Numbered from the stretch's first letter, positions 54,329-58,227 are shown. The stretch: DNA of 64,000 nucleotides from Eubacteriales Family XIII. Incertae Sedis bacterium (GCA_031274195.1 JAISQM010000009.1:13588-77587), one strand, 5' to 3'. Numbers and translations are program-made. Notes: generated by a model not told the origin, from the sequence alone.

Positions 54329-54337
54329 TGATATAAT
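54329..54337 (+). promoter_or_regulatory. Extended -10 promoter element (TGATATAAT) upstream of the STAS operon
   Basis: A TGnTATAAT match in the AT-rich gap after the PAAR-like gene. No good -35 was found. Confidence 0.45.
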
Positions 54338-54375
54338 ACTTCATGGCAGATATACGCGAGTATGGAGGAATGAGA

Positions 54376-54675
54376 ATGAAAACAAATGTTAAAGAAAACG
54401 GAAATGAGCACATTATTGAGGTTGAGGGGCGACTCGACACACTCACCTCTCCGGCTCTGCAGGAGCTGTTGGTCGATTCTGTTTCAAAGTTCAAGACGAC
54501 GGTGCTCGACTTTTCTGCGTTGGAGTATGTGAGCAGCGCCGGTCTGAGAACCTTGCTCATAGGCGAGAAAACGGCGAAAAATCGGGGTGTTTCATTGATT
54601 ATAAGGCATGTGCCCGATTCTGTTCGCGAAGTCCTCTTTATGACCGGATTTACCAAGATACTTACGATCGAGTAA
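54376..54675 (+). CDS. STAS-domain anti-sigma-factor antagonist (SpoIIAA/RsbV-like)
   Basis: IIEVEGRLDTLTSPALQELL...LDFSALEYVSSAGLRTLL has the conserved phosphorylatable Ser context. ATG 54376 lies 6 nt after GGAGGA. Confidence 0.85.
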   Translation: MKTNVKENGNEHIIEVEGRLDTLTSPALQELLVDSVSKFKTTVLDFSALEYVSSAGLRTLLIGEKTAKNRGVSLIIRHVPDSVREVLFMTGFTKILTIE

Positions 54676-54695
54676 TTACGGAAGCCGAGGGTATA

Positions 54696-55628
54696 ATGGA
54701 CGAGATTCTGTATAGAAAAGCGAAAGAAAAAGACTTGCCGGGGATCACGGATTGTATTGTGAGCGTCTATGGCGAAAACAGCTATTACGCCCGATTTTAC
54801 GATTCGCATTATCTGAACGGCATGCTTGACCGTATCTTCATCGCCGAATTGGACGGAGAGGTGGTCGGCACGCTTGTGCTCTCGGATTGGGGCTATAAGG
54901 GTCTGGATCGCGAGCTCAGCACGTTTATTGTGCGCAAGGGCATAAGGAGCCGGCATGTCGGTGCCGAGTTGCTTGCCTATACGCTGGACGCGATAAGCCA
55001 TCTCCCCTCTGTAAAAGGCGCGAATGTGACGCATCACACATACTCACAGATTCTCACGGAGCGCAACGGCTATATCCCGACGGGGCTTCTGTTTGGCGTT
55101 TTTCGTGAAAAGTCCGCGCTTGTTTTTATCGTACGCAATTACAATGTCCATGATATCGGTCAGATATTCGTCCCTGAAGCGTTGCTTCCCGCGGCGGAAG
55201 CGCTGTATCGGACGCTCGGTGTGACGTTTAGGAATGCGGTAGGCGCCGCCGGGAACATTCCGGATCAGGCGGATATTTGGTATGACCACGACGCGCATTT
55301 TCAATCTGTGGAGATATACATATTGGGATACGGAGCGGATTGCGCCGATCGGATATCTGAAATAGAAGCGGCCTGCGCATCGCCGGATTTGACTTCGAAT
55401 GTATATATCGATATGCGAAGTCCAAACGCGCCGGCGGCTTATGAGGCGCTTGCCGGAGCGGATTGTGTCTACACGGGTTTCATGCCTTTGAGCGAGGCTC
55501 ATGAGTATATCATTCTGCACAGGGCGGCCGGTCGGCCGATGGATTATGACGCGCTAAAGCTCACGACGTACACCGAGCAGACGCTTGCCGAACTCGGTGC
55601 TTTGGGCGGTAACGGGCAGACTCTTTGA
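54696..55628 (+). CDS. GNAT-family N-acetyltransferase (N-terminal GNAT domain plus C-terminal extension)
   Basis: IFIAELDGEVVGTLVLSD...FIVRKGIRSRHVGAELLAYTL resembles the GNAT core. Confidence 0.65.
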   Translation: MDEILYRKAKEKDLPGITDCIVSVYGENSYYARFYDSHYLNGMLDRIFIAELDGEVVGTLVLSDWGYKGLDRELSTFIVRKGIRSRHVGAELLAYTLDAISHLPSVKGANVTHHTYSQILTERNGYIPTGLLFGVFREKSALVFIVRNYNVHDIGQIFVPEALLPAAEALYRTLGVTFRNAVGAAGNIPDQADIWYDHDAHFQSVEIYILGYGADCADRISEIEAACASPDLTSNVYIDMRSPNAPAAYEALAGADCVYTGFMPLSEAHEYIILHRAAGRPMDYDALKLTTYTEQTLAELGALGGNGQTL

Positions 55629-55650
55629 TGATTATGAAAGAAGTGGAGTA

Positions 55651-58227
55651 ATGAAAGATAAAAATTATAAAAATTCCATTTACGCGAAGGTTCGGGGCAA
55701 GATGCTCGCGGCATCGTTGCTCTCCGCAGTTGTGATATTCGTAGTCGCAGCCGCCGCGATCTTTATTATCCGCATCAGCGTGGCGGATATGAGCAAGGAG
55801 CTTGGCGATCAAGCGACGAATTACAGTACGGCCGGAATGACGGAAGTGACGCATGAATCACTGCAGAGCGTAGCGACGAATCGGGCGATGCTCAGCGATG
55901 CCAAGTTGCAGACGGTCAGCATGGCGGTCAATATGATTTCCGCTAAAGCGACGGAGATCATGTCGCACCCGGATCGGTATATCGGGCGTGAGGTGCTTCC
56001 TCCCGACCCGAAAAACGACGGGACGATCGTCGCGCAGGTGTCGTATGCCGAGGGTTCAAATCCGTCGGCGCTCAGTCATGAGCTCGGCTTGCTCGGAAAT
56101 CTGCAGGATATACAGATTTCAAGCTTAAAGACGGAGAATACGATCGCATCCATGCAGATCGGCAGCGAAACGGGCATTATGATCATGGTGGATGATATGT
56201 CCGGTACCAAAACCTCCCCGTATGACCCGCGTGTGCGTCCGTGGTATGTCGAGGCGAAGAAAGAAAACACGTTGATCTGGACTGATGTCTTTGACGATTC
56301 GTTTGGGCGGGGACTTTCCATCACCTGCGGTATGCCATATTACAATGAGGCGGGACAGATTCAGGGGGTCGTGAGCGCGGGGATGCTGCTCGCGACGCTG
56401 AATGAGACGGTCATCGATGCCCGCATCGGCGACGGCGGAAAGACTTTCATCGTAAACGAGAACGGCGAAGTCCTGATTTCAGAGGATATTGCAAAGGATA
56501 AGGACGGCAACATCGTCAAGGAAAATCTGCTGAAAAGCGACAGCGAGACCATGCGCGCCGCCGCGGAGAATATGACAAAGGGCGAATCCGGCATCGAATC
56601 CGTCACGTTGGACGGCAAGAACTATTTCATTTCCTACGCGCCGCTTACCGTGCGACCGTGGAGCTTCGCTGTGCTTGTGAAAGAGGACGAGGTTCTCTCG
56701 CACGCCACGGCTATGACGAAGCAGATCTCCAAATTCACCGATGAAACGCTTACCAAGATTGAATGGATATTCCTCATCACATTGGGCGCATTCGCCTTCT
56801 TGTTGCTCGTGATCGCGCTCATCGAAATACGTCATTCGCGCTCGGTGGCTTCGAAAATCACCGCGCCGATCATTTCACTTACGGATAATGTCCGCGCGTT
56901 TGTGAGCGACGAGCATCAGGAGATCGATTTCCATATCGATACGGGTGATGAAATAGAGGAACTCGCGGATTCATTTGCGGATATGAAGGTCAGGCTCAAT
57001 GATTATATAAAAAATCTCACCGTGGTTACGGCGAAAGACGAGCGCATCAGCACGGAATTAAATGTAGCCAAAAGCATACAGGATTCCATGTTGCCGTGCG
57101 TATTTCCGCCGTATCCCGACCGCACGGAGTTTGCGCTCTACGCGAATATGCAGTCCGCCAAGGAGGTGGGCGGAGATTTCTATGACTTCTTCCTCATCGA
57201 TAACAATACCTTGTGCGTCGTCATTGCGGATGTTTCGGGAAAAGGTGTGCCGGGCGCCATGTTCATGGCCATCTCTAAGACCCTCATCAAAAGTAACGCG
57301 CAGTCCGGCCTGCTTCCGAGCGAGGTGTTCGGCATTGTCAACAATATGCTGTACGAGAACAACGAGGCGGAAATGTTCGTGACGGCGTTCATGGGATATC
57401 TCGATATCCCCACCGGCAAATTCTCATTCGTCAATGCGGGCCACAATCCGCCGATCGTGAAGCAGGGCGATCACTTCCGGCAACTCGCGATAGAGCCGGG
57501 CTTTGTGCTCGCGAGTTTCCCAAATGTCCGTTATACGGAAGACTCGTTGATGCTTCGGGCAGGCGACATGCTCTGCATGTATACGGATGGCGTGACGGAG
57601 GCGACCAACAGCGCGAAAGAGTTTTATTCCTTGCAACGGCTGATTCGTGTCGCAAACGCGCAGAACACATCCGATCCCGAGACCTTCACGAAAGGTATCA
57701 AGGAGAGTATAGACCTGTTTGTGGGTGACGAGGAGCGCGCGGACGACATCACGGTTCTCACTCTGAACTACGCCGGTGCGGACATGAACGTCGCGTACGA
57801 TGTGCCGACCTGCATACGCCGGGAGCTTGAAGTCGCCGCGGAAATGAAAAATCTCGAACGCGTATTGGACTTCATAACGGCGCCGCTGCGCGAAAGGGGC
57901 ATCAATGAAGGCTTCATCTCGCAGGTGGAACTCGCGGTGGAGGAAGTGTTTGTGAATATCGTCCACTATGCCTATGCTCCGCGCCGAGGTTCCGCGAAGA
58001 TAAAGCTTTTCTGCGGTGAGAACATGACCTTGATCTTTGAGGATGGGGGCGCACCCTTTAACCCGCTTTCGGCCGTGGAACCCGATATCGATCTGCCCAT
58101 AAACAGGCGTAAGATCGGCGGCCTCGGCATCTTCATGACAAAGAAAATCATGGATTCCGTGATGTACCGATACGAGGACGGGAAGAATGTGCTGACGATC
58201 AGCAAGAAGCCGCCCGGTGTGAGTTGA
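55651..58227 (+). CDS. Sensor fusion: TM, Cache-like domain, TM, HAMP, PP2C (SpoIIE-type) phosphatase, HATPase (RsbW/SpoIIAB-like kinase)
   Basis: Cache-like segment (RPWYVEAKKENTLIWTDVFDDSFGRGLSITCGMPYY). PP2C/SpoIIE motifs (AKSIQDSMLP, GGDFYDFF, VVIADVSGKGVPGAMFMA, YTDGVTEA). C-terminal anti-sigma-kinase-like region (VELAVEEVFVNIVHYAY...GGLGIFMTKKIMD). Confidence 0.8.
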   Translation: MKDKNYKNSIYAKVRGKMLAASLLSAVVIFVVAAAAIFIIRISVADMSKELGDQATNYSTAGMTEVTHESLQSVATNRAMLSDAKLQTVSMAVNMISAKATEIMSHPDRYIGREVLPPDPKNDGTIVAQVSYAEGSNPSALSHELGLLGNLQDIQISSLKTENTIASMQIGSETGIMIMVDDMSGTKTSPYDPRVRPWYVEAKKENTLIWTDVFDDSFGRGLSITCGMPYYNEAGQIQGVVSAGMLLATLNETVIDARIGDGGKTFIVNENGEVLISEDIAKDKDGNIVKENLLKSDSETMRAAAENMTKGESGIESVTLDGKNYFISYAPLTVRPWSFAVLVKEDEVLSHATAMTKQISKFTDETLTKIEWIFLITLGAFAFLLLVIALIEIRHSRSVASKITAPIISLTDNVRAFVSDEHQEIDFHIDTGDEIEELADSFADMKVRLNDYIKNLTVVTAKDERISTELNVAKSIQDSMLPCVFPPYPDRTEFALYANMQSAKEVGGDFYDFFLIDNNTLCVVIADVSGKGVPGAMFMAISKTLIKSNAQSGLLPSEVFGIVNNMLYENNEAEMFVTAFMGYLDIPTGKFSFVNAGHNPPIVKQGDHFRQLAIEPGFVLASFPNVRYTEDSLMLRAGDMLCMYTDGVTEATNSAKEFYSLQRLIRVANAQNTSDPETFTKGIKESIDLFVGDEERADDITVLTLNYAGADMNVAYDVPTCIRRELEVAAEMKNLERVLDFITAPLRERGINEGFISQVELAVEEVFVNIVHYAYAPRRGSAKIKLFCGENMTLIFEDGGAPFNPLSAVEPDIDLPINRRKIGGLGIFMTKKIMDSVMYRYEDGKNVLTISKKPPGVS

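Follow-up and report, generated by a model that had tools for sequence, protein, structure and literature searches.

A predicted partner switch without a sigma factor adjoins a contractile injection system locus in a Family XIII bacterium

To our knowledge, little is understood about the activation of contractile injection systems (CIS) other than those of the type VI family. The question is raised by a stretch of 64 000 nucleotides (the window, G000:C128:13588-77587), which forms part of an 84 kb contig in a metagenome-assembled genome (MAG; 1.64 Mb, 147 contigs, 84% complete) of a Eubacteriales Family XIII bacterium; genomes of the same genus are labelled 'Clostridiales Family XIII bacterium' at NCBI. 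A CIS locus in the window spans from a Pvc16_N gene (33532) to a gene for a PAAR-like DUF4280 protein (53909-54295), with genes for sheath, tube, two CIS_tube proteins, base_V, gp25, Baseplate_J, Tail_P2_I and an AAA+ ATPase between them. Three intact, full-length open reading frames (ORFs) follow the DUF4280 gene in the order STAS protein, GNAT-family protein and membrane sensor (Table 1). An earlier note, made without database searches and referred to here as the sequence-only reading, had described them as a partner-switching module that could be the input controlling the CIS. Are these genes a partner switch, and do they belong to the injection machine?

The comparisons described below favour a positive answer to both questions. 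The module is probably (at a probability of roughly 0.6) a phospho-serine partner switch of the HsbR/CrsR/SypE type that operates without a sigma factor and is a candidate control input of the CIS, and a functional link between the module and the adjacent CIS is considered likely to the same degree.

The sensor unites in one polypeptide the domains expected of such a switch. Exactly two hydrophobic segments were detected and they flank dCache_1, hence this domain is predicted to be extracytoplasmic. The HAMP match fell below its cut-off, and HAMP is recorded for the sensor orthologues P0013, P0018 and P0019; no Response_reg (REC) match was obtained in the Pfam scan, leaving TM-dCache-TM-HAMP (TM, transmembrane segment) as the input. 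The PP2C domain was aligned with the structures 3KE6, 5MQH and 3T91, and the kinase domain carries an N-box (EEVFVNIVHYAY), a G1 box (EDGGAPFNP) and a G2 box (GGLGIF). The closest solved relatives of the sensor were Rv1364c (PDB 3KE6, 1.7e-12, the top match), SpoIIE and the PP2C domain of RssB. The sensor scored below all NCBIfam equivalog cut-offs (RsbW 32 against 145 bits, SpoIIE 51 against 491, SiaA 46.5 against 700 and RssB 43.6 against 700). Full-length orthologues were found at 53–75% identity, P0008 being the one at 75%. The PP2C and kinase domains also match two separate genes of another CIS locus, L199 (4e-78 for PP2C and 9e-29 for a kinase of 137 aa), so the window sensor combines in one chain two proteins that are elsewhere encoded separately as well. 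The sequence-only reading had foreseen both the Cache, HAMP, PP2C and RsbW-like arrangement in a single chain and the fusion of phosphatase and kinase for the adjacent STAS protein; with the reservation on the HAMP score both stood, and all catalytic motifs are kept.

The predicted substrate is encoded in the same operon, its gene ending 976 nt 5' of the sensor start. At 99 aa the STAS protein has the same length as all its homologues, and it is 52–59% identical to the STAS proteins of CIS-linked relatives. It passed NCBIfam TIGR00377, the anti-sigma-factor-antagonist superfamily (65.9 bits against a cut-off of 53.45), and fell below the SpoIIAA equivalog cut-off. Its Ser54 aligns with the phospho-serine of TM1442 (MDSAGLG) and with that of 4HYL, SpoIIAA and RsbV, and the position is invariant in 15 of 15 aligned STAS sequences. 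The proposal of an antagonist with a phosphorylatable serine was thus confirmed at the level of family and alignment, and we infer that Ser54 is phosphorylated.

The STAS, PP2C and kinase components each occur once in the assembled genome. The module STAS was the single PF01740 protein and the module sensor the single SpoIIE-type PP2C (the other phosphatase is of PrpC type) and the single strong HATPase_c_2 match, three weaker matches being ordinary histidine kinases. Four sigma-70-family genes were identified (RpoD, two ECF-like and one SigH-like). None of these is on contig C128, where no Sigma70_r2 match was obtained over the whole 84 kb, in agreement with the earlier statement that no sigma factor is adjacent. 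No sigma factor of SigB or SigF type was found in the genome, the missing 16% of which leaves some doubt. As far as an 84%-complete genome shows, the module is predicted to be a self-contained partner switch without a sigma factor.

A phosphatase fused to a kinase is not new in itself, since HsbR, CrsR, SypE and Rv1364c precede it. In HsbR/HsbA of Pseudomonas aeruginosa and CrsR/CrsA of Shewanella oneidensis a STAS protein is the target of a fused phosphatase-kinase regulator, and no sigma factor is dedicated to the system (PMC6482189). As in the window, an input domain, PP2C and a GHKL kinase follow in the same order in one chain, and the phosphorylation of an adjacent single-domain STAS protein selects its partner. 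However, HsbR and CrsR receive their input from a phosphorelay through a cytoplasmic receiver domain, whereas the window sensor has a membrane dCache-HAMP input; the outputs of the former are known (FlgM/FliA, HsbD and RpoS), their hosts are Gram-negative, and they have neither a CIS link nor a GNAT partner. SypE of Vibrio fischeri is a dual kinase/phosphatase regulator of the STAS protein SypA (Ser56), again with no sigma-factor output (PMC4517449). It resembles the proposed arrangement in that its gene belongs to the very structural locus under its control, but its order is kinase-REC-phosphatase and the locus is one for polysaccharide, not for an injection system. Rv1364c of Mycobacterium tuberculosis shares the PP2C and RsbW-like kinase in one chain and differs in its PAS input, a STAS domain in the same chain, a cytoplasmic location and the lack of a CIS context. 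RsbU/RsbV/RsbW-SigB and SpoIIE/SpoIIAA/SpoIIAB-SigF of Bacillus share the three protein families and the phospho-serine logic with the window, but RsbW and SpoIIAB sequester a cognate group-3 sigma factor whose gene lies in their own operon, and none was found in the 84%-complete G000. The bsc type III secretion locus of Bordetella encodes a PP2C, a STAS protein and a kinase (BtrU, BtrV and BtrW), which are needed for its function; unlike the window proteins these are three separate chains, in a type III system of a Gram-negative host.

The case for a link with the CIS is carried by gene order in relatives. Within the clade of sensors with at least 53% identity to that of the window, seven of the eight loci with readable context (about five lineages) have the module at the DUF4280/ATPase end of a CIS. 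In G001, of the same genus, contig C219 reads Baseplate_J, Tail_P2_I, a 74-aa protein, AAA (77% identical to the window protein), DUF4280 (80%), HD-GYP, STAS (57%) and the start of a MatE gene, and contig C213 carries the end of MatE followed by GNAT (64%) and sensor (58%). G002 has HD-GYP, STAS, MatE::HATPase_c_2-like, GNAT and sensor on two small contigs, with its CIS on other contigs. G003, the only member of the genus searched that lacks a CIS, also lacks the module. In L116, L118 and L125 the CIS baseplate genes are followed by DUF4280, STAS, MatE::HATPase, GNAT and sensor in the same direction, and in L120 and L121 the order HD-GYP, STAS, sensor and second sensor converges on DUF4280, AAA and further genes up to gp25. 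The tandem sensors of the latter two (L120:2891-7637 and L121:2302-7033) consist of a first protein with the kinase (854–865 aa) and a second without a kinase domain (714–720 aa). A maximum-likelihood tree placed the CIS-linked sensors in one clade with support of 100/98.

The window DUF4280 protein is 71–83% identical to the module-adjoining DUF4280 proteins of L030, L116, L118, L120, L121, L125 and G001. The CIS-adjacent module loci are co-directional or convergent with the CIS and range in GC content from 45 to 62%. Their far flanks differ in every locus, the genes downstream of the window module being common to none of them; the CIS end is therefore the only conserved neighbourhood of the module. 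The AAA+ ATPase gene lies between Tail_P2_I and DUF4280 in the window, G001, L030, L120 and L121; it is not at this position in L116:6347-7853, L118:5331-6886 and L125:3-745, where it has been relocated or occupies another place in the locus. Since the module has been kept at the DUF4280/ATPase (3') end through several rearrangements, a connection of its output with the adjacent CIS is most likely.

Two further CIS sub-lineages hold switch genes inside the locus, and L030 is an additional case. In L030, a Family XIII MAG with the closest DUF4280 protein (71%) in a scan of 80 DUF4280-centred loci from species genomes of many phyla, the order is AAA, a histidine kinase (HK) fragment, DUF4280 and STAS, and the other strand carries the gene of a Cache-HAMP-PP2C-kinase sensor. 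This sensor is only 34% identical to that of the window, compared with 73% for AAA, and falls outside the sensor clade on a long branch, so it may be a replacement rather than an orthologue. In G563 (sheath 61% identical) a STAS gene stands directly after Tail_P2_I and is followed by an HK-like ATPase, by cassettes of GNAT and large-protein genes and then by AAA. L199 reads Pvc16, DUF4280, AAA, STAS, MatE, HAMP/PP2C and, further on, PP2C, kinase and a PanZ-like gene, the kinase gene overlapping the PP2C stop. That the association is seen in three orientations and in three CIS sub-lineages, and with flanks that change, may speak for more than shared ancestry; the organisms are, however, related, and the figures are plain counts of loci.

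Some features of these loci were noted in addition. The HK-like ORFs beside STAS in two of them are small and soluble (L030:9326-9997, HisKA and HATPase_c, 223 aa; L127:10009-10962 in G563, HATPase_c, 317 aa). At L199:12274-16967 the PanZ-like (GNAT-type) gene of 302 aa is followed by two genes that each join an eCIS_core to an ADP-ribosyltransferase toxin domain, probably cargo. In the closest CIS lineage (G563, G715 and L079) DUF4280 lies just before the sheath gene and not at the end of the locus, and the sheath gene is preceded, in unchanged order, by homologues of the envelope genes that lie upstream in the window (28679, 30789, Pvc16 and 34130) (L126:2109-11832 in G563, L130:4962-11255 in G715 and L079:572-9989). 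In L022:9320-16949 (G015) and L037:9998-13083 ([Clostridium] polysaccharolyticum DSM 1801) DUF4280 is followed by a conserved membrane protein of 331–364 aa without a Pfam match and by a HAMP-SpoIIE phosphatase of 552–563 aa, placed directly after the membrane protein in L037 and two genes further in G015. No kinase or STAS gene was seen 3' of DUF4280 in these two loci, both of which were searched with phmmer and, for selected ORFs, with Pfam.

A set of observations weighs against a tie with the CIS. The CIS-linked clade consists of related organisms labelled Family XIII, mostly from one Joint Genome Institute (JGI) sample series, and L116/L125 and L120/L121 are near-duplicates, which is why the clade was counted as about five lineages; some of the adjacency may therefore be inherited and not selected. 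L119 falls inside the clade, beside L120/L121, and carries on a 129 kb contig a 56% identical STAS-GNAT-sensor trio next to a methyl-accepting chemotaxis protein, with no CIS gene within 10 kb. Among 49 more distant metagenome relatives of the sensor (31–48% identity), STAS, PP2C and kinase genes occur in many arrangements and none has a CIS gene in its flanks, and the idea that the sensor family as a whole goes with CIS was rejected accordingly. L198 is a module of the same type, with MatE, beside an ECF sigma factor and peptide exporters; L124 lies beside ABC/C39 exporters and L123 beside a T4SS-pilin gene. PP2C-kinase fusions are present in three family members that lack a sheath gene (G007, G010 and G024), the G007 modules standing without a CIS. 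Nor do DUF4280-type systems in general carry such a switch: in the 80-locus scan STAS plus sensor was found in L030 alone and PP2C in L037 alone, 76 loci from other phyla had neither STAS nor PP2C, and the CIS of G025, G033, G761 and G536 had neither in 40 kb, so a general link of this kind was likewise rejected. Finally, the window has lost the HD-GYP gene and the MatE gene with its RsbW-like domain, both present in its closest relatives, and its output may consequently be reduced. The expectation that the module would be syntenic with CIS elsewhere was accordingly upheld in seven of the eight close-clade loci, in L030 and in L199, and failed in L119 and the 49 distant relatives.

Several of these points (the distant relatives with L119, L123 and L124, the ECF sigma factor in L198, the fusions without a sheath gene and the relatedness of the CIS-linked cases) would fit an ordinary partner switch that serves some other process, through an unlinked ECF- or SigH-like sigma factor or in a stress response, and that stands next to the CIS by inherited Family XIII gene order. 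We regard this as unlikely. The adjacency survives inversion, gain and loss of genes and relocation of AAA while the outer flanks change, and the independent sub-lineages L199 and G563 hold STAS, PP2C and kinase genes inside the locus. The disparity between sensor and AAA in L030 suggests replacement rather than simple inheritance, and the sigma factor of SigB or SigF type that a classical switch would serve was not found in the 84%-complete genome.

The GNAT gene, which the sequence-only reading had correctly named as the second of the module, brings in a different set of relatives. The Acetyltransf_1 match is confined to residues 40–127. In an AlphaFold model (pLDDT 88) the N-terminal half resembles the protein N-acetyltransferases PH1933, Naa30, Ard1 and RimI (TM-score 0.7–0.8), and the C-terminal half gave weak matches, nearly all to GNATs, so that it is probably a degenerate GNAT-like domain. 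The P-loop reads RHVGAE in the window, DHVGGA in G001 and HDIGSG in G002, the usual motif being R/Q-x-x-G-x-G/A. The three cassettes upstream in the window also carry GNATs (10085, 16512 and 19846), and the module GNAT had been said to echo them. Paralogy was rejected, as BLASTP gave no match and hhalign a probability of 28% over the N-terminal core only; the resemblance does not go beyond the level of the superfamily. No match at E<=1e-8 was obtained in 400 genomes at the level of the order, and a word-indexed search recovered only six proteins. The family cannot be called extremely rare, since an exhaustive profile search yielded 583 representatives at E<=1e-10.

Eighteen of the top 150 members of this family are 446–669 aa long, and about half of the 13 long members scanned have an N-terminal RsbW-like HATPase_c_2 domain. 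Fusions of an RsbW-like domain to GNAT were noted in P0159, P0230, P0235, P0240, P0246 and P0258 and at L143:8770-10209, L144:8645-10081 and L145:8609-9991. In four Clostridia genomes such a fusion directly follows a MatE gene in LuxE/LuxC/AMP-binding operons, near which no STAS, PP2C or CIS gene was found. A MatE::HATPase_c_2-like gene also separates STAS from GNAT in G001, G002, L116, L117, L118 and L125. MatE transporters of 578–590 aa with a C-terminal RsbW-like HATPase_c_2 domain were located at L113:668-2428 (minus strand, in G002), L116:8256-10001, L118:7271-9034, L125:1204-2949 and L198:8253-9989. The catalytic Asn of this domain is replaced in G001 and G002 (VEEFIVLM as against EEVFVNIV); it is therefore probably a docking domain and not a kinase, and looks like a docking site for a STAS protein. 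The GNAT-sensor pair is also present in L119, L122 and L123 (sensor 41% identical). From these arrangements, MatE, the RsbW-like domain and GNAT are best read as an older unit inserted between STAS and sensor, and the GNAT as an accessory of this switch family that normally travels with a MatE carrying an RsbW-like domain. In the window STAS and GNAT are separated by 20 nt and the intervening MatE gene has been deleted. No orthologue of MatE::HATPase or of the HD-GYP gene was found in the 84%-complete G000. The HD-GYP (HD_5) protein of about 361–364 aa heads the module at L110:6805-7899 (G001), L120:1446-2531 and L121:853-1938, and also in G002, and hints at a link with cyclic di-GMP.

These transporter and HD-GYP genes raise a second possibility, namely that the switch governs an export or envelope function (the MatE transporter, cyclic di-GMP turnover or peptide exporters) and that the window retains a stripped remnant whose main output gene was deleted. 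MatE lies between STAS and GNAT in six relatives and occurs in the modules of L198 and L199, HD-GYP heads the module in G001, G002, L120 and L121, exporters adjoin L124 and L198, RsbW-like::GNAT follows MatE in operons with no CIS, and G000 has neither gene. This nevertheless seems quite improbable. What is left of the module is intact in all three genes, and its motifs and promoter are conserved, so that selection still acts in the absence of MatE and HD-GYP, and the modules of L120, L121 and L030 have remained at the CIS although MatE and GNAT are missing from them. Moreover, an export role and control of the CIS can coexist. The possibility that the module is a decaying, non-functional leftover was also considered. 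It would account for the two missing ancestral genes and for the departure of the GNAT P-loop from the usual motif, but the three frames are open and full length, none of the phosphatase and kinase motifs has been lost, nor has the STAS serine, and P0008 is full length as well. Decay is accordingly regarded as very improbable.

The predicted extended -10 element lies 34 nt beyond the DUF4280 stop, where the sequence-only reading had put it at about 35 nt, and the identical 9-mer, TGATATAAT, stands 5' of STAS in L116, L125, L118 and L119 inside otherwise diverged spacers. The sequences TGTTATAAT and TGTTATACT precede HD-GYP, the first module gene, in L120 and L121 respectively. This conservation speaks for a promoter of housekeeping-sigma type in front of the module, with expression independent of the CIS operon. 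A consensus promoter scan gave no call at 54329-54337 because there is no -35 element, and the assignment rests on conservation in relatives and not on the scanner. In G001 the gap between DUF4280 and HD-GYP is 29 nt and no such box was seen, hence read-through from the CIS could also occur there. Two alternative start codons were rejected: ATG 54343 for STAS, in favour of 54376, where all homologues start and a ribosome-binding site (RBS) is present, and TTG 55585 for the sensor, in favour of ATG 55651 after GGAG, on which homologue starts and RBS agree.

A working scheme for the proposed switch at the CIS can be outlined as follows. STAS, GNAT and sensor would be expressed from their own extended -10 promoter. 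By analogy with HsbR/HsbA, CrsR/CrsA and SypE/SypA, a ligand at the extracellular dCache domain would shift, via the HAMP linker, the balance between PP2C phosphatase and RsbW-like kinase; both would act on Ser54 of the STAS protein, and its phosphorylation state would set its binding partner. Unphosphorylated STAS would presumably bind an RsbW-like domain, either that of the sensor or, in relatives, that of MatE, and one form of STAS would engage the output. The target may be the sensor kinase domain, which would release a sequestered factor, or, speculatively, a CIS protein or CIS-specific regulator. The output could lie in the expression, assembly, cargo loading or firing of the CIS. The GNAT would probably acetylate a component or substrate of the pathway, which is likewise speculative.

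A more specific form of the scheme holds that STAS acts directly on the CIS, for example on the AAA+ ATPase or the baseplate/spike end beside which its gene stands, and under an extracellular signal licenses assembly, cargo loading or firing, with the GNAT adding an acetyl-CoA-dependent layer. This version is possible but rather doubtful. If true, it would give extracellular or cell-wall-anchored CIS of Gram-positive bacteria their first described signal-transduction input. In a large survey of extracellular CIS (eCIS), the only regulators given as associated are GerE/LuxR-type, BTAD and RfaH, and neither sigma factors nor STAS proteins nor phosphatases of SpoIIE type are mentioned (Geller et al. 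2021, PMC8213781). Like the module, GerE, BTAD and RfaH genes stand beside eCIS operons, but they encode DNA-binding or anti-termination factors. A GerE regulator was also sought in G000 and gave no match above cut-off, the one match below it being the SigH-like gene on C147. Full-text searches of the literature turned up no publication in which contractile injection systems are connected with partner switching, STAS proteins or anti-sigma antagonists, and the association of a partner switch with an injection machine, for which comparative genomics gives moderately good support, appears to be unpublished.

A membrane sensor with its STAS substrate at the end of a CIS locus provides a concrete and testable trigger hypothesis for the machines of gut and rumen Clostridia, and the 99-aa STAS protein with a soluble PP2C-kinase fragment forms a set that can be tested in vitro although the host is uncultured. 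The unit of MatE, RsbW-like domain and two-domain GNAT further suggests that transporters and acetyltransferases can be coupled to partner switches.

Table 1. Coordinates of the predicted module, its signals and the adjoining CIS gene, counted from the first nucleotide of the window
Feature	Position	Strand	Basis or remark
DUF4280 (PAAR-like) gene, last of the CIS operon	53909..54295	+	Pfam DUF4280 3.9e-33; boundary where the module attaches
Extended -10 element TGATATAAT, no clear -35	54329..54337	+	34 nt past DUF4280 stop; sequence reading
RBS GGAGGA of STAS	54363..54368	+	7 nt 5' of ATG 54376
STAS anti-sigma-factor-antagonist-type protein, 99 aa	54376..54675	+	Pfam STAS (PF01740) 1.7e-15
Codon of Ser54, predicted phospho-acceptor, second S of YVSSAGL	54535..54537	+	Alignment with solved antagonists
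Two-domain GNAT-family protein, 310 aa	54696..55628	+	PF00583 Acetyltransf_1 8.9e-6, 26.4 bits (cut-off 20.7)
Membrane sensor, 858 aa: TM1, dCache, TM2, HAMP, PP2C, RsbW-like Ser kinase	55651..58227	+	Pfam and TM scan
TM1, residues 18-40	55702-55770	+	Hydrophobic segment (TM scan)
dCache_1 ligand-binding domain, predicted extracytoplasmic	56095..56673	+	Pfam dCache_1 4.4e-24
TM2, residues 373-393	56767-56829	+	Hydrophobic segment (TM scan)
HAMP-like linker	56848..57000	+	Pfam HAMP 0.0014, 19.4 bits, below cut-off 25
PP2C phosphatase (SpoIIE family, PF07228)	57202..57768	+	3.5e-45; metal-binding motifs GGDFYD, ADVSGKG, YTDG, ADDIT
RsbW/SpoIIAB-type GHKL Ser kinase (HATPase_c_2, PF13581)	57835..58206	+	3.3e-21

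Three antisense ORFs of 158–237 aa (54324-55037, 55044-55520 and 57424-57966, all on the minus strand) overlap the STAS/GNAT and sensor genes and are most likely spurious products of skewed composition. On the 3' side of the sensor the module meets convergent housekeeping genes, which encode a 5-FTHF cyclo-ligase, two LytR_cpsA_psr proteins, a 3-hydroxyacyl-CoA dehydrogenase and PGI.

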